Part shown: positions 17,546-59,984 of the stretch, in pieces
Layout: every line of letters begins with the position of its first letter
Numbering within the stretch: the first letter of the stretch is position 1
Assembly: GCA_965199825.1 (NCBI GenBank)
Contig: OZ241329.1
Span: 1,856,001-1,920,000 of the forward strand
Reading direction: 5' to 3'
DNA from: Bdellovibrionales bacterium
GTDB lineage: Bacteria > Bdellovibrionota > Bdellovibrionia > Bdellovibrionales > UBA1609
Length of the DNA stretch: 64,000 bases
Position numbers and translations under genes: made by a program
Notes under the pieces: generated by a model
What the model saw: only the letters and a program-made list of their open reading frames with translations
Database searches by the model: none
Told to the model about the DNA's origin: nothing

Positions 17546-19918
17546 ATGATTTTAATTTTTTGTTTTCTACTCAATATCGCAGTGGGTGCCGATTTTTTTG
17601 AAAATATCCGGCCGCTTGTCCGCCAAAATAAAGTGGATGATGTTTTAATTAATTTAAAAGACGAATCAAAACTTCAAGGTGATGATTTAGCCCTGGGAAT
17701 CTTTTTAAAAGCCCGCATGTTTTATTTGAAAGGCCAATTGCAAGAGGCCTTACGGTTATTTGAGCGCGCCCAAGCCGATAAGAATTTTCGCCTGAATGCT
17801 TTTGCTCTCAACCATATTGGACTTATTTATGCAGCCAACAAGGATTTTCAAAAGGCCAAATCGGCATTTGACTTAGGGCTCAAATATCAACCCAATCGCG
17901 ATTTGCAAAACACGATTCGGTTTGAGCTCGCTGACCTTGCAATTGAGCAAAATAAATATGATTTAGCCCTTCAGCAATTGCGTGGTTTAGAACGCCAATG
18001 GAAAAGAGATGTGCGTTACCCAGAATTATTATTTCGCGAATTAAAAGTCGAAAACTTGAAGCATCACAATGCCAAGGTCTGTAAAATCGCACGCAAATTG
18101 TATTCTGAATTTCCGAGTCATCCGCTCGTGACCAATTGGTCGATTGATTTAAGAGAATCCAAACTCGATGACAAACCTCTTGGTTGTTTGGTGGCCTCAA
18201 AGGATCAATCGCGAAGGATCCATCGATTACAATACAGTGGATTTTCGGAACGGGCCCGAAAGGAAATTGATTTCTTAAGGGCAAAAGAAAAAACGCCTTC
18301 GCCACAACTTGATTTTATGTTGGCTCAATATTTGGTGAGCGAAGGTTTGGTCGACGAAGCTTTAAAACTTCTTTTAAAACGTTACGACACACAGAAAAAT
18401 AATTTTGCTTTTTTGGTTTTGCTGGCTCGAGCGGCAGCCCGAGCGGGGGAATATGAGACCGCGGTGGGTGCTTACTACAAGGCTTCAAAAATTGCGGGCA
18501 GTTCAAAAGCTGGCCGCGAGGCTTTATTTCAAGCCGCATTTTTGAGTTATCAATTTCAAGATTATGATGGCTCGGCTCGAAAGTTTGATGAATTTTTAAA
18601 AAAATATTCTCGATCGGGTTTAAAGCGAGATGCTCTCTGGCATTTGGCTTGGATTCGTTATTTAAAAGGCGATTACGAGGGGGCCTTGCGCGGGTTTGAT
18701 CTCGTACAAACCCAAATGCCCAAAAGCCGTAAAAGATCTGCAAACAAAAAACCGACTCAGCTTTTGCCCGATCGGATTCGGTATTGGAAGGCGATGTCGC
18801 TATTGCGGCTTGAAAGATTTAGCGAAGCCCAAGTTCTATTTCAAAACCTGGTTAACGACAGGGGTTTGAGTTTTTACTCTCAGAGTGCCGCCTATCGATT
18901 AGCCGAAATTCAGCCCAAAAATGAGCCGCAGCATTTACCAAACGAGCAGGCGCTCACTTTGCCTCAACCCCAAGTATCGCAAGAAATCGAAACCGACCAA
19001 GCCGAGGAATCTGAAGAAACTTTATCGATCACAAAAGATGATGCGATCGTGCCGCCCTCTGAGCCTGGGGATGATTCAGACCAAACTGAAGATGCCAAAC
19101 CCGAGCCCACTTTGTTTCGCAGCATGCAGCTCAACGCGGTGTTTGCTCGAGCTCAAGATTTAATTCGCTTAGGGCTTTATGACTGGGCCAGAGCCGAGCT
19201 TTATGAGATCGAAACCCGCACCCGAAATAAATCTCAACTTCAAAGTCTGATTGGGCTTTATGAAAAAATTGATTCCTTTAATCGGTCATCAACTATTGCC
19301 GATTTGGCCTTTGTCTCTGAACGTTTGCGCGACGGTATTGATAAGGGCAAAACATTGTGGGCCCAAGCTTATCCTGAGGCCTTTAAAAATATGGTGGAGG
19401 CTTCGGCCAAAAGCTATTCAATTCCTACAGAATATGTTTGGTCGATTATGCGGGCCGAAAGTCAGTACAAGTTCGACGTGGTCTCTGCGGTGGGGGCCAA
19501 AGGTTTAATGCAGCTCATGCCCAACACCGGATTTCAACTGTCAAAAATTTTGAATGAAAAAGATTTTGCCGAGGCCAGACTTTTTGACCCTGAATACAAT
19601 ATTCGCTTAGGCACCAAATACCTCTCACGACTTGGATCTAAGTTTGAAAATTCTTTGCCGCTGATTGCCGCAGCTTACAATGCGGGCCCTCATCGTGTAG
19701 AAAACTGGCTAAAGAGTTTTGGAACCCTAGATATGGATGAATTCATCGAACACATTCCCTTTGTCGAAACCCGCGATTATGCCAAAAAGGTTGTGCGCAA
19801 TTATGGCATTTACTTAAGGATTTATCGTGGTGATAGCCAAGGACTCAAATGGTTATCCAAACCGATCAACGTCAAACCGCCGAGCAAGGCGTCCTCGCGC
19901 GAATCGTGGGAGATATAA
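17546..19918 (+). CDS. slt: Soluble lytic transglycosylase with TPR repeats (Slt70-like)
   Basis: IMRAES, GAKGLMQLMPNT, AAYNAGP, IPFVETRDY; helical repeats N-terminally. Confidence 0.92.
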   Translation: MILIFCFLLNIAVGADFFENIRPLVRQNKVDDVLINLKDESKLQGDDLALGIFLKARMFYLKGQLQEALRLFERAQADKNFRLNAFALNHIGLIYAANKDFQKAKSAFDLGLKYQPNRDLQNTIRFELADLAIEQNKYDLALQQLRGLERQWKRDVRYPELLFRELKVENLKHHNAKVCKIARKLYSEFPSHPLVTNWSIDLRESKLDDKPLGCLVASKDQSRRIHRLQYSGFSERARKEIDFLRAKEKTPSPQLDFMLAQYLVSEGLVDEALKLLLKRYDTQKNNFAFLVLLARAAARAGEYETAVGAYYKASKIAGSSKAGREALFQAAFLSYQFQDYDGSARKFDEFLKKYSRSGLKRDALWHLAWIRYLKGDYEGALRGFDLVQTQMPKSRKRSANKKPTQLLPDRIRYWKAMSLLRLERFSEAQVLFQNLVNDRGLSFYSQSAAYRLAEIQPKNEPQHLPNEQALTLPQPQVSQEIETDQAEESEETLSITKDDAIVPPSEPGDDSDQTEDAKPEPTLFRSMQLNAVFARAQDLIRLGLYDWARAELYEIETRTRNKSQLQSLIGLYEKIDSFNRSSTIADLAFVSERLRDGIDKGKTLWAQAYPEAFKNMVEASAKSYSIPTEYVWSIMRAESQYKFDVVSAVGAKGLMQLMPNTGFQLSKILNEKDFAEARLFDPEYNIRLGTKYLSRLGSKFENSLPLIAAAYNAGPHRVENWLKSFGTLDMDEFIEHIPFVETRDYAKKVVRNYGIYLRIYRGDSQGLKWLSKPINVKPPSKASSRESWEI

Positions 19919-19922
19919 AGAA

Positions 19923-21491
19923 TTGAAGTTGGTTTTTTTGGTGGCCGTTGCATTCGCAATGCTGACGTGCACACGAACAACTCATGTGGTGCTCGATGAG
20001 TCCCGCACCTTAAGATTCAATGCCAATGTTGAGCCCCCCACTCTCGATTGGACCAAGTGCATTGATGTCGCCTCTGCTCTCATCATCCATAATATGATGG
20101 ATGGGCTTTTGAAATTTGATTTCTCAAAACCACAAATTGGAGTCCTACCTGGCCTTGCCGAATCATGGTCAAGTCCTGATGGACGTGTTTGGACCTTTCG
20201 TCTCAAAAAAAATATTATGTGGTCTGACAATGTTCTTCTGACACCACAGCATGTGCTCGATGGTTTTGAAAGGCTGCTCAATCCAAAGACAGCGGCTCCT
20301 TATGCTTACACACTTTATGATGTCAAAAATGCCAAAGCTTTTAACGTCGGGACTCTCAAAGATTTTTCCAAAGTGGGCGTGCGCATATTAGGGCAGGATT
20401 TGATTGTCGAACTCGAGCATCCCAAAAGTTATTTTCCGATGATGATGACGCACACATCCACCTATCCGGTAAGAAAAGATCTGATCAACAAATACGGTGA
20501 GCGATGGACTGATCCCGAACACATCGCGGTCTTAGGACCTTTTAAATTAAAAACCTGGGAGCATGACAACAGCATTTTGCTTGAGCGAAACCGCACTTAC
20601 TACGGCACAAAACCAAAACTCGAAAATATCTTATTTTATCTGATTAACGACAGTGCAACCGCGATCAATCTGTTTGATGTGGGAAAGCTTGATGGTCTTT
20701 ACCGTTTGCAATCTCGAGATGTGCTGACCTTAAAGAAAAAAAAAGAATACAAGCACGGCGGCCTGCTTAATATTTTGTATTACGGATTTAATGTCAAAGT
20801 CGTGCCTACGAATAATCTTAAAGTTCGTCGGGCGATTGCTATGAGTATCAATAAAAAACAAATCACCGATATGCTCGCCAATGGAGATATTCCGATGACG
20901 AGTTGGCTTCCACCTGGCATGCCTGGATACGAGCCCGAGGTCGGCCTAAAGTTTGACCCGGTTCAAGCCAAAGCCTTATTGGATGAGGCGGGATACAAAG
21001 ATCGCACTCAATTTCCAAAACTTTATTTAAGCTTTAATACCAATGAGGATCATCAGCGAGTGGCTGAGAATATTCAGTCGCAGCTCAAAGAAAATTTGAA
21101 TATCGAAGTCGAATTAAAAAATGAAGAATGGAAAACATATCTCAGTGGGCTAAAACACAATGCCACGCCACTTTTTCGGATGGGATGGCAGGGAGATTTT
21201 CCAGATCCCGATAATTTTTTAACTAGTCTGCTTTCTTATTCCGAAAACAATATGATGGGATGGGTGAACGTTGAGTTTGATCGTTTGATCGAATCGGCCG
21301 CAGTCGAGAGGGACCCTCAGTCTCGACTTGAACTCTATAGAAAAGCCCAAAAAATATTAACCGAGCAAGATGTGGCTCTCATTCCACTTTATTCCCAATC
21401 GGGACAATACTTGGTCAGTGAGCGGGTTAAAAACTTTCCGATCAATGCCATCGAAAATTTAAGATTTGATCAGGTTGAGTTGACCAAATGA
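19923..21491 (+). CDS. oppA: Oligopeptide ABC transporter substrate-binding lipoprotein
   Basis: EPPTLD, PGLAESW, RLLNPKTAAPYA, MGWQGDFPDPDNFL; likely TTG start at 19923 with lipobox. Confidence 0.9.
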   Translation: MKLVFLVAVAFAMLTCTRTTHVVLDESRTLRFNANVEPPTLDWTKCIDVASALIIHNMMDGLLKFDFSKPQIGVLPGLAESWSSPDGRVWTFRLKKNIMWSDNVLLTPQHVLDGFERLLNPKTAAPYAYTLYDVKNAKAFNVGTLKDFSKVGVRILGQDLIVELEHPKSYFPMMMTHTSTYPVRKDLINKYGERWTDPEHIAVLGPFKLKTWEHDNSILLERNRTYYGTKPKLENILFYLINDSATAINLFDVGKLDGLYRLQSRDVLTLKKKKEYKHGGLLNILYYGFNVKVVPTNNLKVRRAIAMSINKKQITDMLANGDIPMTSWLPPGMPGYEPEVGLKFDPVQAKALLDEAGYKDRTQFPKLYLSFNTNEDHQRVAENIQSQLKENLNIEVELKNEEWKTYLSGLKHNATPLFRMGWQGDFPDPDNFLTSLLSYSENNMMGWVNVEFDRLIESAAVERDPQSRLELYRKAQKILTEQDVALIPLYSQSGQYLVSERVKNFPINAIENLRFDQVELTK

Positions 21492-22543
21492 TTTTAGCGT
21501 TAAGCGTAAGTTGGATTTTATGTATTGTGATGCAGTTTTTCAATGTGCCTTTTCCGTTGATCTGGTGGTGGATCAATTTTGGTCTTAGTTTTTTGGGATT
21601 TTTGTATGTGTGCTTTCAACGGGGACTTGGACTTTATCTTTTTAAACGAACGATTGGCGCTCTTGTCGCGATTGCGGTGATTGCCACAATAACATTTTTG
21701 TTATTACGAATTATCCCTGGCGGGCCGTTTGATACCGATAAGGCTCTCCCACCAGAGATCAAGGCGAGTATCGAATCCCATTACCATCTTGATTTGCCTA
21801 TCTATAAACAATATTTGATTTATATCACCGGTTTGCTCCACGGAGATTTAGGCGAGAGTTATAAATATATTGGCCGCAATGTTTCAGAAATTATAGCAGA
21901 GACCTTGCCCATCTCGTTAGAGCTTGGAATTTATTCGCTGCTATTATCTTTTTCGATTGGCATTCCGCTGGGGCTTCTGGCGGCGGCGAAACATAATACT
22001 TTTACCGATCATCTGTTGATGACCTTTGCCATTTGTGGAGTGAGTCTCCCTAGTTTTTTGGTCGCACCCTTATTGATTTTGTTTTTTTGCTTTTTTCTCC
22101 ACTGGTTTGAGCCCGCATTGTGGGAGGGGCCAACCTCATATGTGTTACCGGTAGTGGTACTCGCCACGCGATCGATGGCCTTGGTGGCAAGACTCACACG
22201 TTCAACTGTGCTCGACGTGATTCGCGCAGATTATATCCGAACCGCGCGTTCAAAGGGTTTATCTGAATTTCAAATTTTATTTAAACATGTTTTAAAAAAT
22301 TCGATTTTGCCCGTGCTCACTTATAGCGGACCACTGGCCGCGGAAATATTATCGGGTGCCTTTGTGGTTGAGCAGATTTTTGCAATTCCGGGCCTTGGTA
22401 AACACATGGTGCTTTCTGTGAGCAATCGAGATTATCCGATGGTGCTCGCCACAACCCTTTTATTTTCGGTGATGCTGATCACCGCAAATCTAATAGTGGA
22501 TTTGCTCTACTCTTATTTTGATCCGCGGATTGAACTTCAATGA
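21488..22543 (+). CDS. oppB: Oligopeptide ABC permease
   Basis: PGGPF, GDLGESY, DYIRTARSKGL, NRDYP, DPRI. Confidence 0.92.
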   Translation: MILALSVSWILCIVMQFFNVPFPLIWWWINFGLSFLGFLYVCFQRGLGLYLFKRTIGALVAIAVIATITFLLLRIIPGGPFDTDKALPPEIKASIESHYHLDLPIYKQYLIYITGLLHGDLGESYKYIGRNVSEIIAETLPISLELGIYSLLLSFSIGIPLGLLAAAKHNTFTDHLLMTFAICGVSLPSFLVAPLLILFFCFFLHWFEPALWEGPTSYVLPVVVLATRSMALVARLTRSTVLDVIRADYIRTARSKGLSEFQILFKHVLKNSILPVLTYSGPLAAEILSGAFVVEQIFAIPGLGKHMVLSVSNRDYPMVLATTLLFSVMLITANLIVDLLYSYFDPRIELQ

Positions 22544-23397
22544 ATGATCCAGTTTTGAGATTTAAAAAAAATAGGCTTGCTGTTTTTTGTTTGAGCTATG
22601 TGGTGTTGATGTGTCTGATCGCCCTGTTTGCTCCGCTCTTGTCGCCCTATCCATTTGATCTTCAAAATATGGGCGAGATTTTATCTTCTCCCAATTCAAA
22701 ACATTGGCTGGGCACCGATGCCTTAGGCCGAGATATGCTGTCGCGTTTGATTTATGGCGCGCGGATGTCGATGTCTGTGGGTGTGATGACCGCCTTTCTT
22801 TCACTCCTTATCGGAACAACTTACGGGGCTTTGGCAGGCTGGTCGGGCGGGTTTATAGACAATGTGATGATGAGAATTTTGGATATTTTGATTTCAATCC
22901 CAACCCTCGTACTTTTGATCCTGGTTAAAATATTTTTTGATGCCTCAAACCTCATTCAAAATGCAGAACTCAAAGCCCTCTCAGGAATTTTACTCGCCCT
23001 TTCACTTGTGAGTTGGGTGACTTTGGCTCGTGTGGTGCGGGGTCAAGTGCTTCAAGTTAAACAAATGGCGTTTATCGAGGCTGCTCGAGCGCTCGGTGCG
23101 AGTTCTTTAACTATTGTTCTTAAACATATTTTGCCCAATATTTTAGGTCCAATGATTGTGCTTTTAACATTTCAAATTCCGGCAAATATTTTGTTTGAAA
23201 GTTTTTTGAGTTTTATCGGACTTGGGCTTCAACCCCCATATTCGAGTTGGGGAGTGCTTGCTAACGAAGGTTGGCGCAGTTTGCGCTCTTATCCTCACCT
23301 GATGATCTCTCCAGGACTTGCGCTATTTTTTGCGATGCTCGCTTTTAATTTTTTGGGCGATGGGTTGCGCGATGCCTTTGATGCTAAGATGAAGTGA
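22540..23397 (+). CDS. oppC: Oligopeptide ABC permease
   Basis: HWLGTDALGRD, FIEAARALGAS, ESFLSFIGLG, GDGLRDAFD. Confidence 0.92.
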   Translation: MNDPVLRFKKNRLAVFCLSYVVLMCLIALFAPLLSPYPFDLQNMGEILSSPNSKHWLGTDALGRDMLSRLIYGARMSMSVGVMTAFLSLLIGTTYGALAGWSGGFIDNVMMRILDILISIPTLVLLILVKIFFDASNLIQNAELKALSGILLALSLVSWVTLARVVRGQVLQVKQMAFIEAARALGASSLTIVLKHILPNILGPMIVLLTFQIPANILFESFLSFIGLGLQPPYSSWGVLANEGWRSLRSYPHLMISPGLALFFAMLAFNFLGDGLRDAFDAKMK

Positions 23398-24370
23398 GCA
23401 ATTCTTTTTGCAGTGCAAACGATAGCAAAAAAGGATCTTTGATTTGGCGTTCACCAAAATCTTCTTTTGATTTTATTCCTTTCCATCGCTGCTCAATCAA
23501 AACTTGGGCGGTCGCACCACCGAGGCTTGAACCTGGCCCCAGCATCACCAAATGATCGGGTGCAAATTCTTTAACCGCAACCTCGATCGCCTTTGAGTAA
23601 TTGTAAACTTCAACCACCTGGTGGCCAAAGGTGTACTCATAAAGATCTTGTGCTTCGGTTGAAAAGGGCTGCCAAATTTTTCCGCGTCCATCGATCAAAG
23701 GAATCTTTGGTGGAGTAAATAAATCTTGATTTAGAGTCTCAAAAGCTCTTTGAGATATGGGCGCCATCAATGGGGTGTGAAAGGCCGCGTGATTGATCAG
23801 TTGAAATGGAAATCGATCGCGACGTGGCAGCCGCTTTAAAACTTCGCTCACCGATTCGCAACCAAAAACCAAATAGCCACCAAGTTTGATCGATAGAAAT
23901 GTGTTTGGAATATCAAGTGCACTCAAGGCTTCTGCGTGGAGTGGGGGCGAGGGTGTCCAATCGTCATTGCAAATTTGGGTGATCACTTGCGAGCCTAAGA
24001 GTTTTTCTTTCATCATCGCGCCCATGGTTTGGATCACCTCAAAACCATTTTCGAAACTCACAGCTCCGGCTAGAGCTAAAGCGGTGTACCAGCCCATTGA
24101 ATTTCCGGTGATCGCCACGATCTCAAAATTTTTTAATTTTTTAAAATCTTGGACCGAGCTTGCATAAATTAAGGGCGATGCATGTTCACCCTTGGTGTGG
24201 AGCGAGTTTTGAAATGACGAAGCCTGATCCATTTCGCTTAAAGTTGGAAAACCAAGTTCACTGCGGCGTTGATCACAGTACTCAAGGAGACTTGAAGTCT
24301 CGAGCTGACCCATTGTTTCTTTGGTGTACGTGCCGCGACCAGGACACACCACCACCACTCGTTTTTTCAT
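23384..24370 (-). CDS. FabD-like (ACP S-malonyltransferase fold) acyltransferase
   Basis: CPGRG, GNSMG nucleophile motif, HAAFHTPLM, LGPG. Confidence 0.8.
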   Translation of the reverse strand: MKKRVVVVCPGRGTYTKETMGQLETSSLLEYCDQRRSELGFPTLSEMDQASSFQNSLHTKGEHASPLIYASSVQDFKKLKNFEIVAITGNSMGWYTALALAGAVSFENGFEVIQTMGAMMKEKLLGSQVITQICNDDWTPSPPLHAEALSALDIPNTFLSIKLGGYLVFGCESVSEVLKRLPRRDRFPFQLINHAAFHTPLMAPISQRAFETLNQDLFTPPKIPLIDGRGKIWQPFSTEAQDLYEYTFGHQVVEVYNYSKAIEVAVKEFAPDHLVMLGPGSSLGGATAQVLIEQRWKGIKSKEDFGERQIKDPFLLSFALQKELLTSS

Positions 24371-26526
24371 GACTCAACCAATTCTTTTGCTGCCAGAACA
24401 ATGTCGGATGTTTGTGGCAGACCCGAGACCGCAGCAGCTCCTAATGGAATAAAACAATCAAGGCCTGCCAAGACTTGTATGCGCGGTGGATTTTTTATTT
24501 TCTCGATGATCATTGCAACCAGTCCCTCGCTCAAAGATCCGGTCTGACGGCATTCATCCACAATCAAAATCGATTTGTATTTTGAAATTTCCTGAATCAA
24601 TTGCTGTTTAGGTAAAGGATGAAGCCATCGTAAATCCAAGACGGCCGCATCGATTCGATGTTGGTCCTTTAATATTTTTTGGGCTTGCAGCGAGAGATAG
24701 GTTCCATTGCCATAAGTTAAAATCAAAATAGAATCGGTCTCGCCATAAACACGAAATTCTACAAGGCGAATTTCGCCACTCAGCGGAAAACTAAAAGACC
24801 ACGCCTTATCTCCAGAGCGATGAAGGTCGCGTGTCATGTAAAGAGCGATCGGTTCGATAAAAACAATCACTCGGCCTTTTTCCCAAGCAAGCTCAGCGCA
24901 CGCGCGAAGCATTTGGACCGCATCGTCTCCTCGCGAGGGAACCGCAACAATGATTCCCGGTATATCGCGAAACACACTGAGCGAATTGTCGTTGTGAAAA
25001 TGACCACCAAAACCTTTTTGATAGGGCAATCCGGCGATTCGTAAGATCATCGGATTCACAAACTGACCTTTAGAAAAAAAAGCGAGGGTCGCAGCCTCAC
25101 CACGAATTTGATCTTCGGCATTATGGACATAAGCCAAAAACTGAATTTCTGGAATCGGCAAAAATCCATTGTGGGCTAAACCAATCGCTGTTCCCAAAAT
25201 TGACTGCTCATCGAGTGGAGAATTAAAAACCCGACGTGCCCCAAATTTTTTGTAAAGCCCATCGGTCACATTGTAAACGCCGCCTTTTTGGGCCACGTCT
25301 TCACCAAAGATCAAGCTTTGAGGATAGCGATCAAGAATTTCTGCTAAACCAAAATTTATTAATTTCGCCATATGAAGTGGCGCATGGGGCACTTCAAGGG
25401 ATTTAAAGTCAGGCGACTTTCTTGGGAAAGCACAAGCAGTGATGGTGCTTGCAACATCCATCGGATCATCCAGTGGTTCGCGCGTGAGGGCCTCGTGTGC
25501 GACCGCAATCACTCGAGCACGCACCGACTGATAAAGATCAATGATTTGGGTTTGTGATAAAAAGTTCTGTTCGACACAAATTCTGGCCGAATGGAGAAGC
25601 GGATCTTGAAATTCATTTTCTTCCATCTGCTTTAAACTCAAATAGTTTGTTTCCATATCCGAGCCGGCATGACCCATAAGCCGAACAGTTTTGATATGCA
25701 AAAAAACGGGCTGCTGTTTTTTAACCGCAAGACTGCGAGCCAATACCGATTTTTGATAAACATCAGAGAGATTGAGCCCATCACATTTCAAATAATTAAA
25801 ATGGGGACGCTGAGAAAAATTTTTTTCGATCCAATCCGAACTTGTGGGAACCGAAATCCCGATTCCATTATCCTCACACACAAACACAATCGGTAATCCA
25901 ATTTTTTGATCCGCAATCAGTGATGCGGTATTAAAAGCACCTTGAGCGGTGGAGTGATTGCTCGAAGCATCTCCAAATGAGCACACGACTACACCATCGT
26001 CTGGAATCACGGTGGTTTTAATTTTTAAATATCGGGCGCGTGAAATTGAAAATGCTGTGCCCACGGCCTTTGGCAAGTGAGACGCAATGGTCGACGTCTG
26101 CGGCGGCACGTTGAGTTCAAAACTGCCAAACACCTTGTGCCTGCCACCTGAGATCGGATCTTCGCGTGAAGCCAAAAATGAAAGCCATGTATCATAAAGT
26201 GGTGTGGTGCCAGGCAATTGTTTTGCTCGCTGAAGCATAAAGGCGCCGCTGCGATAATGCAAAAAGGCCATGTCTGTAATTTTAAAAGCTAAGCCAACCG
26301 CGGCGTTGCCCTCGTGACCCGAACTTCCGATGGTGTAGTAACACTTGTTTTCATTTTTTAAGATACGCGCATACAAATCCAGATGCCGTGATTGAATTTG
26401 GGTTTCAAACAAATCAACAAATTCAGTTTTTGTCAGTCCTGAGTATGGGCTTAAGGCCTGAGGAAAGCTTCCTTCGTTCACATGCTTTAAAAAATTCTGA
26501 TCGATCACTTCTGCGCGGTTGAACAT
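24367..26526 (-). CDS. ThDP-dependent 2-oxoacid dehydrogenase E1, fused alpha+beta
   Basis: GDAS...EDN ThDP motif, RLMGHAGSD, FGEDV..GGVY..T, PEIQF, GGHFH. Confidence 0.9.
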   Translation of the reverse strand: MFNRAEVIDQNFLKHVNEGSFPQALSPYSGLTKTEFVDLFETQIQSRHLDLYARILKNENKCYYTIGSSGHEGNAAVGLAFKITDMAFLHYRSGAFMLQRAKQLPGTTPLYDTWLSFLASREDPISGGRHKVFGSFELNVPPQTSTIASHLPKAVGTAFSISRARYLKIKTTVIPDDGVVVCSFGDASSNHSTAQGAFNTASLIADQKIGLPIVFVCEDNGIGISVPTSSDWIEKNFSQRPHFNYLKCDGLNLSDVYQKSVLARSLAVKKQQPVFLHIKTVRLMGHAGSDMETNYLSLKQMEENEFQDPLLHSARICVEQNFLSQTQIIDLYQSVRARVIAVAHEALTREPLDDPMDVASTITACAFPRKSPDFKSLEVPHAPLHMAKLINFGLAEILDRYPQSLIFGEDVAQKGGVYNVTDGLYKKFGARRVFNSPLDEQSILGTAIGLAHNGFLPIPEIQFLAYVHNAEDQIRGEAATLAFFSKGQFVNPMILRIAGLPYQKGFGGHFHNDNSLSVFRDIPGIIVAVPSRGDDAVQMLRACAELAWEKGRVIVFIEPIALYMTRDLHRSGDKAWSFSFPLSGEIRLVEFRVYGETDSILILTYGNGTYLSLQAQKILKDQHRIDAAVLDLRWLHPLPKQQLIQEISKYKSILIVDECRQTGSLSEGLVAMIIEKIKNPPRIQVLAGLDCFIPLGAAAVSGLPQTSDIVLAAKELVES

Positions 26527-26585
26527 AGATTAAAGAATGTTCTGGTGCGCTTGACCGAAAGGCAACAAAAAGGTGTGATAAAGAT

Positions 26586-27752
26586 ATGAGTCAATATGAG
26601 CATTTGAATTTTATGAATGAAGATATTCTTTTTAGCGAAGAAGAATTAATGATCCGCCAAACCGTCAGAGACTTCGTCACAAAAGAAGTTTTGCCAGTGC
26701 TTCAAGAAAGTCATCGCAAAGAGCATTTTCCATCACAGCTGATTCCGCGATTTGCCGAGATGGGTTTACTCGGATCGACCATCCAAGGTTATGGTTGTGC
26801 AGGATTAAACCATGTGGCTTATGGATTGGTGATTCAAGAGTTAGAGCGCGCCGACTCGGGCATTCGTTCCTTTTGTTCGGTTCAAGGCTCGCTTGTGATG
26901 TATCCCATTTATGCTTACGGATCCGATAAACAAAAAGAGAAGTACTTGCCCCAACTCGCTTCTGGAAAAATGATTGGATGTTTTGGCTTAACCGAACCTG
27001 ATGCCGGATCAAATCCTGGTGGCATGCTGACCAAGGCCGAAAAAGTAAAGGGTGGGTATCGCCTCAACGGAAATAAAATGTGGATCACCAATGGCTCAGT
27101 TGCCGATATCGCAATTGTTTGGGCAAAGCTTGAGGGCCGCGTGCGTGGATTTATTGTTGAAAAAGGCACAGAAGGTTTTTCGACAACACTCACAAAAGGA
27201 AAATTCTCACTTCGTGTCAGTGTGACAAGTGAACTTCATCTCAAAGATTGCATCGTGCCCGAAGAAAATATGTTGCCCAATTGCGATGGCCTCAAAGGCC
27301 CGCTCGGATGTTTGTCGCAAGCGCGATACGGTATTGCGTGGGGTGTGGTGGGTGCTGCAAACGCCTGTTATTTTGAAGCTCTCAATTACGCAAAAAATCG
27401 GGTGATCTTTGATAAGCCTTTGGCAGGATATCAGTTAGCTCAAGCGAAGTTAGTCAAGATGGTGCAAGAGATCACAAAAGGTCAGCTGCTGGCTTTGCAA
27501 ATGGGACGACTCAAAGAAAAAGGCGAACTCCAGCCTCATCATATTTCGCTCGTAAAAATGAACAACTGCCGCATGGCTTTGGATGTGGCTCGCGATGCGA
27601 GAGATCTACTCGGCGCCAATGGAATTATTGATGAGTATCCAATTATTCGTCACATGATCAATCTTGAAACTGTGAATACGTATGAAGGAACCGAAGATGT
27701 TCATCGTTTAGTTGTGGGTGGTGAGATCACGGGCTTACCGGCGTTTCGGTAG
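26586..27752 (+). CDS. gcdH: Acyl-CoA dehydrogenase, glutaryl-CoA dehydrogenase-like
   Basis: ELERADSGIRS, GCFGLTEPDAGSNPGGM, ARYGIAWG, NLETVNTYEGT, C-terminal ITGLPAF. Confidence 0.82.
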   Translation: MSQYEHLNFMNEDILFSEEELMIRQTVRDFVTKEVLPVLQESHRKEHFPSQLIPRFAEMGLLGSTIQGYGCAGLNHVAYGLVIQELERADSGIRSFCSVQGSLVMYPIYAYGSDKQKEKYLPQLASGKMIGCFGLTEPDAGSNPGGMLTKAEKVKGGYRLNGNKMWITNGSVADIAIVWAKLEGRVRGFIVEKGTEGFSTTLTKGKFSLRVSVTSELHLKDCIVPEENMLPNCDGLKGPLGCLSQARYGIAWGVVGAANACYFEALNYAKNRVIFDKPLAGYQLAQAKLVKMVQEITKGQLLALQMGRLKEKGELQPHHISLVKMNNCRMALDVARDARDLLGANGIIDEYPIIRHMINLETVNTYEGTEDVHRLVVGGEITGLPAFR

Positions 27753-28136: not shown

Positions 28137-28964
28137 ATGGATCATTTAAAAATTCATTCTCAAGCAGTCAAGGCCGCGGATTCTCATCGCAAATCTGAAA
28201 TGGAATTGCTCAACGCTTTAGAAGTGGTTTGGAAAAACAAAACGTACTACCAGTTTGGTTGCGCCTCATTGTTTGAATACTCTACGAAACAACTGAAGCT
28301 TTCTGAAGAGATGGCGAGCATCGTAAATAAAATTGCCAAAAAATTTACCGAACTTCCAGAACTTAAATCAGGCATAGAGTCGGGCGAGCTCTCGCTTTCA
28401 AAAGTGAATCGCATCACTTCTGTTGTGAACAAAGACAATGTTCAACATTGGATGGATCTTGCCAAAGGCACCAAACGGAATCTCGAAAAAGAAATTGCGA
28501 AGGTCCAACCTGAAAAGGCCATACCCGAGCGGGCACGATACCAAAAAGCTGGAGATACCCTAAGAATATCGATTTCATTTTCGGTCACTCAAGAAGAATA
28601 CGCAGTGTTTGAACGCACCAGAGATTTGCTGAGCCAAAAATTAAAACGTGCCGCGACCATTGGCGAAGTTCAAGTCGCAGCCATCAACGAGCTCAATCAA
28701 AAACTCGATCCGCTCAGAAAACCGCTTCGCAAAACCCAAGCGGGCACGACAAGATTGACTGTCACGTTGAAGCGTAAAATTCACCATCAACATCACAGTC
28801 AATGCACGTATGTGGATCAAAATGGTCAACGCTGTGGTGAACGTCGCCATCTTGATATCCATCATATTATTCCAAAATCGAAAGGTGGCAGTGACGCCGA
28901 AGAAAATCTCACACTCTTGTGCACCGGGCATCATCGTGCCCACCACAAGAGTAAACATAATTAG
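28137..28964 (+). CDS. HNH endonuclease with helical N-terminal domain
   Basis: C-terminal QCTY..GQRC..LDIHHIIPKSKGGSDAEENLTLLCTGHH; N-terminal YQFGCASLFEY; AGGAG RBS. Confidence 0.9.
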   Translation: MDHLKIHSQAVKAADSHRKSEMELLNALEVVWKNKTYYQFGCASLFEYSTKQLKLSEEMASIVNKIAKKFTELPELKSGIESGELSLSKVNRITSVVNKDNVQHWMDLAKGTKRNLEKEIAKVQPEKAIPERARYQKAGDTLRISISFSVTQEEYAVFERTRDLLSQKLKRAATIGEVQVAAINELNQKLDPLRKPLRKTQAGTTRLTVTLKRKIHHQHHSQCTYVDQNGQRCGERRHLDIHHIIPKSKGGSDAEENLTLLCTGHHRAHHKSKHN

Positions 28965-29064: not shown

Positions 29065-30597
29065 TTGACGGAATCAAAACTAAAAAGACAAAAATGGCTG
29101 ATGCTTCTCGCACTTTTTTTTAGCTTTGCAAGTTATGCGCTTGAAATTCAGGGTTTCGTTACCAAGGACTGTGCAAAGGTTGCAGGCATTATCGTCTATG
29201 CCACTGATTCTGAAATCGAAATCGTCAATCTCAAAGGACAACTTCAAAAAATTGATGTGCACGATATTTCGTCTTTGGTGGCGTTTGATGTGCTCGACAA
29301 TCCCATCGGCACATTTCAAATCGATGACAAACTAAAAGAGCGCCTTAAGCTTTTATATATTGAAGACCAAAAAGGTGTGCCGGTTTTTGCGATTCGCTTT
29401 ATCGAAGACTTACTTTTATTTATGACTTTGGACGGCAAAGTTCAGGTTCATTCCTTTTCTGATATCCAAAAGCTGAGGCCTGCAACCGAAAATGTCGAAC
29501 CACATCGGCGATTTTCAAAAAATCCCAATTTTGATTTTTCGGGAGCTTCTGCCAGCTGCAGTTTTGATTCTGATAATGGGATCAAACCCACGCGGATCAT
29601 GACCGATCAAATTAGCATCGGCGAATTTATCAATGATTTTGCCAGGGGTTATGAGGGACTTGAAAGTTTTGAAGAGCGCACCTATCTGTACTCTCGCCCA
29701 TATCTGTTCGAACGCCATGCACGTTTTGGACTCTCTGTGGTTTCCTCGCGCACCGAGCCCGCGATCGAGGCTCCGGTGTTTTTTCAATTCTCATCTGGTG
29801 AGCCCTATCGCTTTCAAAGTTTCACTGCCTTTGGAATGATCTCGCAAGAATTTTTGCCCAACTCCGAGCCCACATTTAGTCTACGGTCCGAAGTCAAATC
29901 ACATTTGTTTCACGCTTTATTTGCCGCCAATGTGCTGGGCATTCCTGCGGGCACCTCGATCTTTTTAAAACATCCAAGCGAAATGAAGCTTGAAAAGGAT
30001 GTGAACGTTCAACCCTCATTTAATTATTTGGCAATGATGGGGGCAGACTATGGTCCCTATAGTTTGTCGGTTGGACTTTATTATCCCACTTTTGGAATCA
30101 AGGTCGGCAACGAGTATCGCGAAGTGTTGGGAAGTTCGGTCTCCTATGCGGTGCGCGCGATGTATACCACTTCAATTTTGCGTCTTAGAGCGATCACCGC
30201 TTTTGTTCGCTACGATCAGAGTAAATCCTCATCGAGTGATGTGCTCTCAAAAACGGGCGAAGACGGCAACCTTGGCACTCCGACGAGTTTTCAATTTCAG
30301 AGTATATTTTTTCGTGGTGGAGCAGACTATCAGTATTCTGACCGCTTAAGATTTAGTGCTGACGCGATCATTGTTGAGGGATCATACAAAGAACAAATGA
30401 GCGGGCTGGGCAATGATATTCGATTTAATAAAGTCACCGCACAATTCACCGCCAAACAATCCTTTAGCGATTATCTTGCGGTCAGTCTTTCGGCAAATTT
30501 GCTTTATCATGATTTTAATTCGAATTTCGTCAACGTCTCGTTAAAAGACGACAAACAGGAGTCCAATTTTTTTGCATCCTTTGAATTTATTTTTTAG
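29065..30597 (+). CDS. Secreted protein, probable outer-membrane beta-barrel (paralogue 1)
   Basis: Signal peptide, amphipathic beta-strand-like C-terminal half, terminal Phe (FEFIF); start could be ATG 29101. Confidence 0.65.
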   Translation: MTESKLKRQKWLMLLALFFSFASYALEIQGFVTKDCAKVAGIIVYATDSEIEIVNLKGQLQKIDVHDISSLVAFDVLDNPIGTFQIDDKLKERLKLLYIEDQKGVPVFAIRFIEDLLLFMTLDGKVQVHSFSDIQKLRPATENVEPHRRFSKNPNFDFSGASASCSFDSDNGIKPTRIMTDQISIGEFINDFARGYEGLESFEERTYLYSRPYLFERHARFGLSVVSSRTEPAIEAPVFFQFSSGEPYRFQSFTAFGMISQEFLPNSEPTFSLRSEVKSHLFHALFAANVLGIPAGTSIFLKHPSEMKLEKDVNVQPSFNYLAMMGADYGPYSLSVGLYYPTFGIKVGNEYREVLGSSVSYAVRAMYTTSILRLRAITAFVRYDQSKSSSSDVLSKTGEDGNLGTPTSFQFQSIFFRGGADYQYSDRLRFSADAIIVEGSYKEQMSGLGNDIRFNKVTAQFTAKQSFSDYLAVSLSANLLYHDFNSNFVNVSLKDDKQESNFFASFEFIF

Positions 30598-32044
30598 TTT
30601 GATCCTCGGATTTTTGACGCTTGAGGCTCATGCCATCAACCTGCATGCGCTCTACACAGCTTCTTGTCAGCGGCATGTGGGAGTGATATTGGGCGTGACT
30701 CCGCGTCACCTTGCTTTATTAAATCTCGAAGGCAATATTGTAAATGTCGAGCGCTATGAGGTGATTTACTACGTCAATTATCCGCTCGATAAAGTTCCGA
30801 TGGCGAGTATCGAAAATCCAGAGCAAGTGCCCCAAGTGACGGTCAAGACTTTCCAAAATGGCGAGCTTGAAACTTTGGTTGTTGGTTGGCCGGTGGATTT
30901 TAGTGCCGATCGTGTTTCATTTTTGAGCCTTAAAGGATTAGAGGTTTCAATCGATCGTCGATCAATTTGGGATATTCGTTTTGACACGCGTAATGGCCGC
31001 GTGGCTTTTCCTCATGTGACAAAACAATTTGAGTTTGTGCCGCCTTATGCGTTTGCAAACTGTGCTACTGAAAAAAAGAAGTTGATCAAAGTTTTCCCCC
31101 AAGATGTGTTGAGCGATCCGGTTAAAATCAAACGCGAGTTTGATCGCTTAGAAGACAGTCACCGACGTCTTCAAAAATACGAAACCGAGGAGCACTTTTA
31201 TCCTGTGCCTGAAATCTACACCAACCAAACTCTGCTTGGATTGTGGCTGATGGCGGGCTCGCGCTATGGCGCCTCCGACAATCGCACCAATAATTTTACA
31301 CCTTTGTTAAGTAACGAATTTAGCTCGGGACCGTTTGGATTTCAGAGTGAGTTTCGCTCGGGCAGTGGGTTGCTCAACCAAACGATTCATGAAGAAACCC
31401 AAACCCAAGTGTATTACCGCATGAAAGCCGACTACTTTCATCTTTCGGCATTTTTTGATCCCAACCTCATTTTGGTGGGCGATAAATATAAGTGGGGACG
31501 AGATGATTTAAAATCCAACGACCTCCGTGCGATCGAAAGTGGATTTTTAGAAATGGGTTTTGATTGGGGCGCCTTCGCATTGGAAGTTTATATGGGCACA
31601 TCCCTCAATGTAGGCGCTCGCGAGCAAGATTATGTGAAGGAAGACACACTCTCCTTACCCCGAATTGGAATTCGCTATCAGGGCTACACCTGGATCTTAA
31701 GTGCGCAGGTGGGCTCAGGTTCCACCGACATTTTTAAGGGCAATTTTTTTCGCGCCAACTTTGAATATAAGCCTTCAAAAAACTGGCGCTATGCGGTCTC
31801 AGCGCTCAGTCGTAATCTAAAGTTTGATGGCAAAGATTCGAACACAAACACGCCTTTCCGATCTGAAAGCAAAAGCTTAACTGTAGCGGGCGATTTTCAG
31901 TTTCGATTTCATACGCGCTATTGGGCAGGATTAAATTTTGCTCTTGAACAGGTGGGTCAAACCGGATCGCTCAATGGCGGTGCTGATCAGAGCGAAAATC
32001 ATGTTTATCCAAAATTAGGAACAATGGTTTCGTTAAGTTTTTAA
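30572..32044 (+). CDS. Secreted protein, probable outer-membrane beta-barrel (paralogue 2)
   Basis: Signal peptide, same layout as upstream gene, terminal Phe (VSLSF). Confidence 0.65.
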   Translation: MHPLNLFFSLILGFLTLEAHAINLHALYTASCQRHVGVILGVTPRHLALLNLEGNIVNVERYEVIYYVNYPLDKVPMASIENPEQVPQVTVKTFQNGELETLVVGWPVDFSADRVSFLSLKGLEVSIDRRSIWDIRFDTRNGRVAFPHVTKQFEFVPPYAFANCATEKKKLIKVFPQDVLSDPVKIKREFDRLEDSHRRLQKYETEEHFYPVPEIYTNQTLLGLWLMAGSRYGASDNRTNNFTPLLSNEFSSGPFGFQSEFRSGSGLLNQTIHEETQTQVYYRMKADYFHLSAFFDPNLILVGDKYKWGRDDLKSNDLRAIESGFLEMGFDWGAFALEVYMGTSLNVGAREQDYVKEDTLSLPRIGIRYQGYTWILSAQVGSGSTDIFKGNFFRANFEYKPSKNWRYAVSALSRNLKFDGKDSNTNTPFRSESKSLTVAGDFQFRFHTRYWAGLNFALEQVGQTGSLNGGADQSENHVYPKLGTMVSLSF

Positions 32045-33141
32045 ACGTTAAATCTAAAAAATAAAACGTCGCCATCTTGTACAACGTACTCTTTGCCCTC
32101 AAGCCGGTATTTGCCCGCTTCTTTTACCGCAGATTCGCTTCCGAGTTTAAATAACTCTTCGCACGCATAAGTTTCGGCACGGATAAAACCTTTTTCGAAA
32201 TCGGTATGGATCACCCCTGCGGCTTGCGGCGCTTTATAACCTTGGCGAATGGTCCACGCTCGGACTTCTTTTTCGCCGGCGGTAAAAAAAGTCACAAGAT
32301 TGAGCAAACGATAAGATTCACGAATCAACCGAAATAATCCGGGCTCGCTCACTTTGAGCGAATCCAAAAATTCTTTTCGCTCGCTCGGTTCCAGTTGAGC
32401 GATCTCGGCCTCTAGACTGCTGCAAATACTTAAAGACAAATTATTTTCGGAAGTCGCACGCTCGTTGACCTTTTGAACAAAGGGCGAATTGCCCGAAATA
32501 AAATCTTCTTCAGAAACATTGCACACATACAAAACTGGTTTAGCAGTGAGGAGATGAAGTTCTTTATATAAGATTGCTTCGGAATCCAAAACCTCAACTG
32601 TGCGTGCAGGTTTTCCATCGCTCAAGGCATCATAAACTTTTTTGACCAATGCGTACTCGGCTTTTACTTTTGGATCTTTGGAGGTGCCTGCAAGCTTTTC
32701 GGTTTTTTTGATTCTTTTTTCCAGCGAATCGAGATCGGCCAACATCAATTCGGTATTGATCACATCGATATCTCTTAGGGGATCGACACTGCCGCTCACA
32801 TGGATCACATTCGGATCTTCAAAACATCTCACCACGTGAACGATCGCATCTGTTTGCCTAATATTGGCAAGAAATTGATTGCCCAATCCTTCGCCCTTTG
32901 AGGCGCCAGCGACCAAGCCCGCGATGTCGACAAATTCCATTGCGGTGGGAATCACGCTTTGGGGTTTAATAAAAGAGCAAATCTTATCCATCCGTTCATC
33001 GGGAACGGTGACCACGCCGACGTTTGGATCAATGGTGCAAAACGGATAGTTTGCGGCTTCGGCTTTTGCAGAGGTGAGAGCGTTAAAAAGAGTGCTTTTT
33101 CCAACATTGGGTAAGCCGACAATTCCTGCTTGCAGAGCCAT
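32041..33141 (-). CDS. ychF: Redox-regulated ATPase YchF
   Basis: GIVGLPNVGKSTLFNALT, ANYPFCTIDPN, HTDFEKGFIRAE, FRFNV. Confidence 0.98.
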   Translation of the reverse strand: MALQAGIVGLPNVGKSTLFNALTSAKAEAANYPFCTIDPNVGVVTVPDERMDKICSFIKPQSVIPTAMEFVDIAGLVAGASKGEGLGNQFLANIRQTDAIVHVVRCFEDPNVIHVSGSVDPLRDIDVINTELMLADLDSLEKRIKKTEKLAGTSKDPKVKAEYALVKKVYDALSDGKPARTVEVLDSEAILYKELHLLTAKPVLYVCNVSEEDFISGNSPFVQKVNERATSENNLSLSICSSLEAEIAQLEPSERKEFLDSLKVSEPGLFRLIRESYRLLNLVTFFTAGEKEVRAWTIRQGYKAPQAAGVIHTDFEKGFIRAETYACEELFKLGSESAVKEAGKYRLEGKEYVVQDGDVLFFRFNV

Positions 33142-33145
33142 TTGG

Positions 33146-33724
33146 TTAATCCTTTTTTATTTGTAAACTGTTATAGTACGATGCCGCACGATCATAGCCT
33201 TGGCTAAAAAAACTGCTAACAGCATCGGCGGCGGCTCCAATAAAATCGGACATCTCGGCCATTTCGCTTTTTGAAAAATTTTGTAAAACATAATCTGCCA
33301 CATCCTGACCCGGATGGCTTGGGCGGCCCACGCCCAATTTCAGTCGGGCATAGTCTGGGCCTAAATGTTGGGTCAGACTTTTTATTCCGTTGTGCCCACC
33401 AGCTCCACGGTTTTGATGAAATCGCATTTGTAAAAACGGCTGATCAATATCGTCTTGGATCACCAGTAAATCTTTGAGCTCAATATCATAAAATTTTAAA
33501 AGTGGTGCCACGCTCTCGCCCGAAAGATTCATATAGGTCTGAGGCTTAACCAAAATAACAGATTGTCCATCAATATTGATGCGCGAAGTTTGGGCGCGAT
33601 GCTCGGTTCGATAAGAGCCTGAGCCCAATTCTTGATTGATCGCATCGACCACAATAAATCCGATGTTGTGACGTTGAAGAACATATTGGGGGCCTGGATT
33701 TCCAAGCCCAACAAGACACTTCAT
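33146..33724 (-). CDS. pth: Peptidyl-tRNA hydrolase
   Basis: VGLGNPG, RHNIGF, KPQTYMNLSG, GGHNGIKS. Confidence 0.97.
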   Translation of the reverse strand: MKCLVGLGNPGPQYVLQRHNIGFIVVDAINQELGSGSYRTEHRAQTSRINIDGQSVILVKPQTYMNLSGESVAPLLKFYDIELKDLLVIQDDIDQPFLQMRFHQNRGAGGHNGIKSLTQHLGPDYARLKLGVGRPSHPGQDVADYVLQNFSKSEMAEMSDFIGAAADAVSSFFSQGYDRAASYYNSLQIKKD

Positions 33725-33734
33725 CTATTGATCG

Positions 33735-34415
33735 TCATTTTTTAGCAGCAGCATCTTTCTTAGCATCTGCTGCGGGCGCAGCAGCACCGGCTGCAGGAGT
33801 TGCACCGGGTGCAGCGGCCGCAGTGGCGTCAGCGGGAACAACGGTCGCAACTTCTTCACGAACAACTGCGACTGTCGCAATTGTTTCTTCGATCGAAGTC
33901 ACAAGTTTGAGGCCCTCTGGAATTTGAATGTCTGAAACGTGCAAGCTGCCATCAAGGCCAATGCCGGAGACATCAACAGCAATAAAATCAGGAATTTGTG
34001 TGGGTAAACATTCGACTTCGATATCTCGTCGAACAGCATTAAAGATCCCACCTTCTGTGGTTCCAATCGCTTTACCTTCAAATCGCAATTCAACACTGAC
34101 ACGAACCGATTTGGTCATATCGGGTGCAAAAAAATCGAAATGAACAGGGCGGCGTGAAACGGGATGAATCGTCACATGTTTTTTTAAAACTTTTAAGCCA
34201 TTCAAAGCTTGGTCTTGGGATTTTAAAGTAAAAATCGCATTTTCAAAACCATGTTTGTTGTAGCGGACCGCATCGCTTTCGTTGAGCGAAATAACGATGT
34301 TCTCGATTTTTGGTCCGTAAACCACAGCCGGAACAATTTTATTTTTGCGCAGCGAGCTTACTTTTTTTCCAGCTATTCTGCTATTTACTTCGATCGATAA
34401 TTCTTGCTGAGCCAT
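33735..34415 (-). CDS. rplY: 50S ribosomal protein L25/Ctc
   Basis: VPAVVYG, HPV..PVHFDF, CLPTQIPD; Ala-rich tail; GAAGGAG RBS before ATG 34415. Confidence 0.95.
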   Translation of the reverse strand: MAQQELSIEVNSRIAGKKVSSLRKNKIVPAVVYGPKIENIVISLNESDAVRYNKHGFENAIFTLKSQDQALNGLKVLKKHVTIHPVSRRPVHFDFFAPDMTKSVRVSVELRFEGKAIGTTEGGIFNAVRRDIEVECLPTQIPDFIAVDVSGIGLDGSLHVSDIQIPEGLKLVTSIEETIATVAVVREEVATVVPADATAAAAPGATPAAGAAAPAADAKKDAAAKK

Positions 34416-34429
34416 TGTCTCTCCTTCAA

Positions 34430-35377
34430 TCAAGATTCAAAAAGTGCACTCACTGAGTCGTAGGAATAAATTCTTCGTATTGCTTCGGCCACAACGGGCG
34501 CCACACTGATCACTTCAAACTTACCACTGTCAATTGCGGCTTGCTTTAAGGGAATGGTGTCGCTGACCCAAACTTTTTGAACTCCGCACTCAATTAATCG
34601 TGAAACGGCGGGACCAGAAAGAACGGGATGTGTGGCAACGGCAAACACCTCTTTTGCACCATTCCGCATTAAACTGTCAACCGCCTGAACCAATGTTCCG
34701 GCAGTATCGATCATGTCATCAAGAATCACCGCGATTTTTCCACGCACATCTCCAATGAGGTGCAGCGCCTGGGCTTCGTTAGGTCCAGTCCGACGTTTAT
34801 CAATAATAGCTAAAGCGCATTCCACTCGCTTGGCAAATGCTCTGGAGCGTTCGACCCCACCCGCATCGGGGCTAACAATAACAAATTTATCACCAAAGCC
34901 CATCCGGTCACGCCAAGCACGGGCAAATGTTGGGATCGCAAAAAGGTGATCGACCGGGCCATCAAAAAATCCCTGAATTTGTGAAGAATGAAGATCGACC
35001 ATAAGGAGTCGGTTCGCACCGGCACTCTCCAAAAGTTTTGCCACACATTTTGCAGAAATGGGTGCGCGTGGAGCAACTTTGCGATCTTGCCTTGCGTAAC
35101 CATAGTACGGCATCACCGCAGTGATATCGGCGCATGAAGCTCGCTTTAAAGCATCAAGCACCATAAACAGTTCCATATAGTTTTCGTTTACAGGTGGCGC
35201 GGTACTTTGCACCACAAACACGTTGCAACCGCGAACCGATTCATGAATTTCGACTTGCACTTCGCCATCAGCAAATCGTGAAATCGAAATTGCTCCGAGT
35301 TCGACGCCCGCCGCTTTTGCCACACGAGCCGCGAATTGGGGATTTGAATTTCCAGAAAATATTTTTAGCCCCGTCAT
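34430..35377 (-). CDS. prs: Ribose-phosphate pyrophosphokinase
   Basis: FADGE, PYYGYARQDRK, SPDAGG, DDMIDTAGT. Confidence 0.97.
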   Translation of the reverse strand: MTGLKIFSGNSNPQFAARVAKAAGVELGAISISRFADGEVQVEIHESVRGCNVFVVQSTAPPVNENYMELFMVLDALKRASCADITAVMPYYGYARQDRKVAPRAPISAKCVAKLLESAGANRLLMVDLHSSQIQGFFDGPVDHLFAIPTFARAWRDRMGFGDKFVIVSPDAGGVERSRAFAKRVECALAIIDKRRTGPNEAQALHLIGDVRGKIAVILDDMIDTAGTLVQAVDSLMRNGAKEVFAVATHPVLSGPAVSRLIECGVQKVWVSDTIPLKQAAIDSGKFEVISVAPVVAEAIRRIYSYDSVSALFES

Positions 35378-59894: not shown

Positions 59895-59984
59895 GGCCAA
59901 ATTTCTTCTCAAAAGATCAAAAAAGCAAGCCGCCCAGAATTTAAGTTGAGAAATTATTTTTTAGAAAGAATCATCAACTTATCC

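Follow-up and report, generated by a model that had tools for sequence, protein, structure and literature searches.

A locus on contig OZ241329.1 of a Bdellovibrionales bacterium (assembly GCA_965199825.1, positions 1,856,001 to 1,920,000) raises the question of how a 2-oxoacid dehydrogenase (E1) can deliver its acyl product to coenzyme A (CoA) when its gene is paired with that of a FabD-like acyltransferase. The stretch analyzed, called the window below, is 64,000 nucleotides long, and positions are counted from its first base. It encodes a single-chain alpha-beta E1, dependent on thiamine diphosphate (ThDP) and of the heterotetramer type of branched-chain 2-oxoacid dehydrogenase (BCKDH) and pyruvate dehydrogenase (PDH), with 719 residues (24367..26526, reverse strand). 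The E1 gene is followed on the same strand by that of a FabD-fold serine acyltransferase of 328 residues, here called AT (23384..24370), the E1 stop and the AT start sharing an ATGA overlap (24367..24370). On the forward strand, gcdH, the gene of a 388-residue glutaryl-CoA dehydrogenase of the decarboxylating type (26586..27752), starts divergently from E1 across a gap of 59 bp (26527..26585, no strand assigned). This is the layout described by the first-pass annotation, and its statement that the window holds no gene for a dihydrolipoyl acyltransferase (E2), lipoamide dehydrogenase (E3), acyl carrier protein (ACP) or ketosynthase is likewise borne out, GcvH included, by tblastn with the genome's own copies. 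The overlap suggests translational coupling of E1 and AT, and the 59-bp gap may be a control region shared with gcdH.

The reading that we favor, with a probability of about one half, is that the E1, of BCKDH type and adapted to 2-oxoadipate, transfers glutaryl to a lipoyl domain borrowed from elsewhere, and that AT passes it on to CoA. As far as sequences can tell, the module is real, conserved and uncharacterized; its substrate is well supported, the role of AT less so.

The conservation of the module can be seen from the GTDB genomes, in which at least 593 stretches were confirmed. The best 80 of these were analyzed; they were found through AT, and loci with E1 only cannot therefore appear among them. 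In 79 of the 80 loci AT is directly preceded on its own strand by the E1 gene, the 80th locus beginning at a contig edge, and gcdH is found near the pair in 62, or in 48 of the 56 that have enough flanking sequence. Other neighbors are genes for piperideine-6-carboxylate dehydrogenase (12 loci), the saccharopine dehydrogenase family (11) and HglS (4). An E2 or GcvH gene adjoins the pair in none of the 80, no oxidoreductase other than GcdH is conserved nearby, and no ACP, ketosynthase or bio family recurs among the commonest neighbor clusters. A single E3-like neighbor turned out to be a VTT-domain oxidoreductase scoring below the lipoamide dehydrogenase cut-off. The neighborhood analysis proposed in the first-pass annotation thus returns a conserved linkage of AT with E1, usually together with gcdH and lysine genes and never with an adjoining E2. 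The same arrangement, E1 directly upstream of AT, is present in 24 of the 25 AT-bearing genomes of the window's phylum and in all 20 of a roseobacter family (that of genome G304), where AmaB is encoded directly downstream of AT in 9 of the 20 loci.

The beta half of E1 and AT form one chain in a single partial record whose origin is not given (P0230). Two other candidate fusions were rejected: the long match P0271 is, as judged by eye, a frameshift artefact, its reading frame being lost around residue 590 and AT beginning anew after that, and the 1028-residue frame of locus L028 overlaps a separate E1 frame. No E1 fusion was detected among proteins of 1260-3595 residues, but a fusion of E1 and AT, at about 1050 residues, would be too short to fall in this range. 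As a separate observation, nine loci (L019:11002-12129 and eight others, the named ones being Marinimicrobia) have a homocitrate-synthase-like gene behind AT, in most cases between it and gcdH.

The nature of the substrate can be approached through HglS, a 2-oxoadipate dioxygenase/decarboxylase. We searched 301 genomes of the window's phylum for AT, E1, gcdH and HglS, 80 of them belonging to the window's order (families f1-f11); weak AT matches in G072 and G056 (E ~1e-21) were left out of the family count. AT is found in 25 genomes, E1 in 25, both in 24, gcdH in 88 and HglS in 102. In the 24 genomes with the pair, the two genes are neighbors without exception, although a contig break separates them in G140, and only one of these genomes has HglS, compared with 101 of the other 277. 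Within the order, 20 genomes carry the pair and 55 HglS, while none has both and five have neither. Both states occur inside three families, namely the window's own (20 other genomes, split 10/10), f2 and f6. The gcdH gene is present in all 24 pair genomes of the phylum as against 27 of the 102 HglS genomes, the corresponding figures within the order being 20/20 and 23/55. Such a difference is to be expected if glutaryl-CoA is the product of the pair and is bypassed by HglS. Two half modules also occur, both in genomes with HglS: G259 (L111, C246; an assembly of 470 contigs) has gcdH followed by AT and lacks E1, and G006 (L110, C18) has an intact E1 among unrelated genes and lacks AT and gcdH.

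The exchange can be followed in place. In the window and in L021 the gene order is slt-oppA-oppB-oppC, AT and E1, gcdH and, further on, ychF-pth-rplY-prs; in G074 the same genes frame hglS in the slot of AT and E1, and G252 has this latter order from slt to gcdH. The HglS proteins of G074 and G252 keep His47, Arg51, His172 and Glu242, that is, the His-His-Glu triad and an Arg four residues past the first His. A triad of this kind and a specificity Arg were described for HglS of Pseudomonas putida, and 2-oxoadipate activity was predicted by its authors for all such proteins (PMC7286885). The exclusion of HglS, the swap in place, the dependence on gcdH and the lysine-gene neighbors together make the conversion of 2-oxoadipate to glutaryl-CoA claimed in the first-pass annotation likely, and we consider it quite probable that 2-oxoadipate is the substrate of E1.

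The E1 is composed of E1_dh, Transket_pyr and Transketolase_C domains, with the ThDP/Mg cofactor motif (GDA..EDN, D186 and N220) and the activating Glu (Glu440). Its sequence matches are alpha and beta chains of PDH and BCKDH only, no DHTKD1 chain being among them. In the fold search the identity is 26-29% to beta chains versus 14-15% to DHTKD1, and the closest solved alpha chains are those of BCKDH; the genes of this family are presumably annotated as '2-oxoisovalerate dehydrogenase'-like. His286 aligns to alpha-His291 of the human enzyme and His511 to beta-His128/129 of 3duf. The cofactor motif, Glu440 and both histidines are invariant in 74/74 E1s paired with AT and in 15/15 E1s without it. 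We take the histidine numbering of the P. putida and human BCKDH E1 components (E1b) to be equivalent. In the P. putida E1b, this pair of histidines donates protons to the lipoyl sulfurs (PMC8146983).

Where human BCKDH has GRQMPVH, the E1 family has an invariant GGRHK loop (74/74), the phmmer alignment being gapped there and the register set by eye. The residues Arg129-His130-Lys131 of this loop (26134..26142, reverse strand), invariant in the family, are a candidate site for the distal carboxylate of the substrate. In GcdH, residues E87, R94, S95, S98 and E367 match E87, R94, S95, S98 and E370 of the human enzyme in the alignment to 1sir, and their roles, including those of Arg94 and the catalytic Glu, are presumed to be the same. 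The match to 1sir/1siq (E ~1e-130) is far better than that to other acyl-CoA oxidases and dehydrogenases (1e-78 or weaker).

The next question is what AT does. It has the FabD fold, an alpha/beta-hydrolase plus a ferredoxin-like domain, complete on the CoA side, and Gln251 is kept. The Ser-His dyad is also kept: Ser91, in the GNSMG nucleophile motif (24092..24106, reverse strand), and His198 align to Ser90 and His206 of the host's own FabD, and both are present in 46/46 relatives collected by phmmer (set A2). Since GNS[ML]G[WF]Y served as the search pattern for the GTDB loci, invariance of the motif there is circular, and its conservation is taken from A2. The malonyl Arg is lost, Met116 standing opposite Arg115 of the host FabD; we take this Arg to be the equivalent of Arg117 of E. 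coli FabD, which binds the malonyl carboxylate. Met occupies the position in 74/74 sequences of set A5 and in 37/46 of A2, with Thr, Leu, Ala and Val among the next commonest in the latter. AT further differs from FabD in having Arg12 at the Gln of PGQG, Asn before the Ser and Trp after the second Gly; Arg12 could possibly hold the distal carboxylate of glutaryl. The FabD model TIGR00128 scores AT at 48 bits (cut-off 261) and the model of MdcH, the transacylase of malonate decarboxylase, at 34 bits (cut-off 298), fab, ACP and polyketide synthase context is missing around the gene, and the true fabD of the host lies inside a fab cluster at C1:2395300. AT is thus distinct from the housekeeping malonyl transacylase, as the first-pass annotation held, and its annotation as 'ACP S-malonyltransferase' is very likely wrong. 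In one genome (G204, L113:9828-10748), the AT frame has only 238 residues from its first start codon and the profile match begins at position 25; this copy may be broken near its start.

The FabD fold is that of ACP acyltransferases, and the language-model neighbors of AT include VinK_C and SAT clusters. AT could accordingly be thought to load glutaryl onto ACP and thereby prime a biosynthesis such as that of the pimelate moiety of biotin. The window contains a bio operon at a distance of 28 kb, and in the BioZ route biotin synthesis is primed with glutaryl thioesters (PMC7645780). We give hardly any weight to this function, as opposed to a role in glutaryl transfer to CoA: the commonest neighbor clusters of the 80 loci offer no recurring partner for it, the partner GcdH is a catabolic enzyme, and according to the same paper glutaryl-ACP has not been observed in nature.

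The transfer of glutaryl requires a donor, and here the first-pass annotation had proposed a pathway independent of E2. This is not supported, in view of the two conserved lipoyl histidines, the existence of intact E1s without AT and the fact that no carrier travels with the pair (0/80). The second point comes mainly from the roseobacter family of G304 (119 genomes): 34 genomes have E1, and 20 of these have AT as well, in each case as the next gene. The remaining 14 of the 34 have an intact E1 and no AT, either in the flanks or by genome search, and no common substitute gene; in five of them gcdH is directly upstream of E1. The 15 E1s without AT (these 14 and that of G006) retain every one of 20 positions examined for cofactor binding and catalysis. 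In a FastTree tree, read without a formal test, the 14 fall at about eight separate places among the paired E1s. Eleven positions of E1 are relaxed in the proteins without AT, most strongly Ala119; these are confounded with lineage and form no clear AT-binding patch. AT needs E1, yet E1 often manages without AT. The E1s without AT and the two histidines point to an ordinary lipoyl cycle on borrowed E2 and E3, with AT as an add-on, and use of a lipoyl carrier by the pair appears quite probable.

Carriers are available in the hosts. None of the genomes checked lacks E2, which was found in the window's genome and in 5/5 others, as was GcvH. The window's genome (2.84 Mb, 100% complete) has elsewhere an operon for the E1, E2 and E3 of 2-oxoglutarate dehydrogenase (OGDH), E1o-E2o-E3, an E1alpha/E1beta pair, and an E2-E3 pair between lipA and lipB, giving two E2s, two E3s and two GcvH-like genes in all. 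The single chromosome of G301 lacks E1o and encodes one E2, of the BCKDH type, within the operon E3-lipB-E1-E2-lipA; G304 has two E2s, one beside a PDH-type E1alpha and one beside E1o, typed by position only. The candidate carriers are a BCKDH-type E2, E2o and GcvH; in the window's genome an E2 lies at C1:614108, E2o at C1:2274024 and GcvH at C1:1631585. The second GcvH-like protein of the host (C1:797148-797543) has Gln at the position of the lipoylated Lys of GcvH (DTDQG versus ESVKA) and probably cannot carry lipoate.

The narrower idea of the first-pass annotation, that AT replaces the acyltransferase domain of E2, perhaps with GcvH as the carrier, is the mechanism that we would put first, direct transfer of glutaryl from ThDP being the less likely branch. 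A system without any E2, in which E1 would glutarylate free GcvH (or, less likely, dispense with lipoate) and the FabD-fold enzyme, which has no relation to any E2 catalytic domain, would be the CoA acyltransferase, is doubtful in our view. If true, it would provide the missing bacterial step from 2-oxoadipate to glutaryl-CoA as an energy-keeping alternative to HglS.

The most radical form of this idea dispenses with lipoate, E2 and E3 altogether: the enamine would be oxidized by O2, a flavin or electron-transferring flavoprotein, and AT would take glutaryl from acyl-ThDP to CoA. The absence of E2, E3 and lipoyl genes from the 80 loci, the lack of an E2 class shared by G301 and G304 and the P0230 chain all agree with it. 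Oxidation of the enamine with O2 is also known for E1o and for the 2-oxoadipate dehydrogenase E1a, at less than 1% of the on-pathway activity (PMC8146983). The invariance of both lipoyl-handling histidines, the retention of E1 without AT in 15 genomes, the E2 and GcvH found in 6/6 genomes checked and the absence of an accompanying conserved oxidoreductase except GcdH make this version very unlikely.

The E1s without AT are also compatible with a clean-up function, in which AT would strip glutaryl, by hydrolysis or slow transfer, from stalled lipoyl arms of shared PDH, BCKDH or OGDH E2s, while a normal E2 would make most of the glutaryl-CoA. Such a function would account for the intact E1 in 14/34 genomes at about eight places of the tree, five with gcdH directly upstream, and for the occurrence of AT almost only alongside E1; the change of His to Asn before Ser and the missing malonyl Arg are as compatible with a transferase as with a hydrolase. 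However, AT stands beside 24/25 of the E1s in the phylum, with the genes overlapping or nearly abutting, which suggests stoichiometric use. The CoA-side fold of AT is whole, and gcdH, whose product requires a CoA ester, is present in all pair genomes. Clean-up is considered unlikely, and, given the rest of the proposal, AT is more probably than not a glutaryl-lipoyl:CoA transacylase.

The favored cycle would then run as follows. The fused E1 would decarboxylate 2-oxoadipate on ThDP, and the resulting enamine would reduce and glutarylate a lipoyl arm borrowed from elsewhere in the genome. AT would take glutaryl from this arm onto Ser91 and hand it to CoA, an ordinary E3 would reoxidize the arm, and the adjacent GcdH would oxidize glutaryl-CoA to crotonyl-CoA and CO2. 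Hosts whose carrier lacks a catalytic domain able to accept glutaryl would depend on AT; those in which E1 can turn to an E2 of the succinyltransferase type, in the manner of human DHTKD1, could do without it.

A number of observations weigh against this proposal. On the side of the carrier, none accompanies the pair, and the hosts do not all share one class of E2 (G301 versus G304), so that E2o cannot be borrowed everywhere as it is in the human model; moreover, the host has E2o, and an E1 able to use it should have no need of AT. The proposed role of Arg129-His130-Lys131 depends on the by-eye register. On the side of the substrate, the exclusion of HglS does not extend to the family of G305 (100 genomes, labeled Alteromonadaceae here), in which AT is found in 52 genomes, HglS in 96 and both in 51 (AT and HglS being what was counted). 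HglS occurs in 4/119 genomes of the roseobacter family, none with E1, which is too few to inform on exclusion, and the related genomes in all these counts are not independent. Fisher p-values calculated for 79 genomes of the order (f11 left out) disregard this kinship and are given no weight here. In G074 and G252 gcdH stays beside hglS, although the product of HglS is 2-hydroxyglutarate and not glutaryl-CoA. Finally, sources of 2-oxoadipate are hard to recognize: kynureninase was not found in the host genome, and above the cut-offs AmaB occurs in 0/79 and the saccharopine dehydrogenase family in 4/79 genomes of the order, the host having neither. Missing upstream sources are, however, also common to the HglS-bearing relatives.

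Several of these points could mean that E1 acts on another 2-oxoacid, such as a branched-chain acid, 2-oxoglutarate, 2-oxopimelate or an acid of an arginine pathway, and that it is tied to gcdH and HglS in an indirect way. The nearest solved alpha chains are indeed of BCKDH, the host lacks recognized lysine-to-aminoadipate enzymes, and the 51 G305-family genomes with both AT and HglS often have them near astCAD. Yet an E1alpha/E1beta pair and an OGDH operon exist in the host besides this E1, the loop is charged where that of BCKDH is hydrophobic (in the by-eye register), and neither the in-place swap with hglS, nor gcdH in 24/24 pair genomes, nor AmaB behind AT in the roseobacter loci would be expected. 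We regard another substrate as distinctly unlikely. In several G305-family genomes, gcdH-E1-AT lies within about 8 kb of hglS with astA/astD genes nearby; this proximity keeps the functional link and shows that the two routes are not simply redundant.

As observations in their own right, astD-like genes are found next to hglS in L121-L123 and in the vicinity of the gcdH-E1-AT unit in L169-L171. The host has an Ast-like operon (C1:879464-884705) with a divergent class III aminotransferase, an ArgE-like deacylase and AstA-like and AstD-like proteins, all below the cut-offs, and astB is also present. A succinylated lysine route to 2-aminoadipate through such an operon is a guess only.

The surroundings of the module serve mainly as synteny markers, with gene names read from the sequence. 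On the left, slt-oppA-oppB-oppC (17546..23397, forward strand; compared with L126 and L127) lies outside the pathway; oppC and AT converge and overlap by 14 bases at their stops (23384-23397), and oppABC has no adjoining ATPase genes. On the right, ychF-pth-rplY-prs occupies 32041..35377 on the reverse strand (compared with L126 and L021). Past gcdH, an HNH endonuclease gene is inserted (28137-28964, forward strand); its 27 paralogues on contig C1, 49-85% identical and mostly close to full length, suggest a family that is mobile or expanding. The HNH gene is followed by two overlapping open reading frames (29065-32044, forward strand; 510 and 490 residues) with signal-peptide-like starts and a C-terminal Phe, outer-membrane-like and with no NCBIfam match at 1e-30. 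The biotin operon, bioB-bioF-bioD-X-bioA (55475-59912, reverse strand), has no bioC, bioH or bioZ among its genes; X (56728-57297, 189 residues) has no NCBIfam match at 1e-30 and may, as a guess, supply the pimelate moiety.

A literature search found no published description of the E1-AT pair, most subscription papers and all supplements (fitness and proteomics tables) being beyond its reach; the background also drew on PMC8605253. In lysine labeling of Phaeobacter inhibens, the accessible text assigns no gene to the 2-oxoadipate step (PMC5653290). The pair offers candidate genes for the bacterial conversion of 2-oxoadipate to glutaryl-CoA in the at least 593 GTDB stretches. If the proposal is true, a FabD-fold serine transferase does the job of the E2 catalytic domain, and a BCKDH-type E1 has reached the substrate of DHTKD1 independently.

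Among known systems, the closest in function is the animal 2-oxoadipate dehydrogenase complex (DHTKD1 as E1a, DLST as E2o and DLD as E3), with the same inferred conversion upstream of GCDH and an orphan E1 that borrows its E2 and E3 (PMC8146983). DHTKD1 is, however, an OGDH-type E1, whereas the present one is a fused BCKDH/PDH-type chain accompanied by a FabD-fold acyltransferase, and the pair also occurs in G301, which has no E1o and only a BCKDH-type E2. With the alpha2beta2 E1 of BCKDH and PDH (1dtw, 1um9, 1w85), our E1 shares the fold, the cofactor motif, the activating Glu and both histidines; it differs in being a single chain of about 27% identity, in the Arg-His-Lys loop (by eye) and in never standing beside an E2 gene in the 80 loci. 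AT is set apart from FabD/MCAT (malonyl-CoA:ACP transacylase) and MdcH by Met for the malonyl Arg, Arg for the PGQG Gln, Asn before Ser and the lack of an ACP neighbor. The actinobacterial two-in-one 2-oxoglutarate dehydrogenase OdhA/KGD uses the lipoyl arms of another E2, its acyltransferase domain being of E2 type and in one chain with an OGDH-type E1. It is similar to the present system in that an E1 has a private acyltransferase (PMC10415282), which here is a separate FabD-fold serine enzyme serving a BCKDH-type E1. HglS (DUF1338, PF07063) shares the inferred substrate and, in relatives, the slot, the two being nearly exclusive in the order. It is an unrelated Fe(II)/O2 enzyme yielding D-2-hydroxyglutarate (PMC7286885, 10.1101/450254), while the E1-AT route would keep the energy as a CoA ester and NADH. 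The pair is best regarded as a variant of the 2-oxoacid dehydrogenase systems, and it fills the slot that HglS takes in two relatives.

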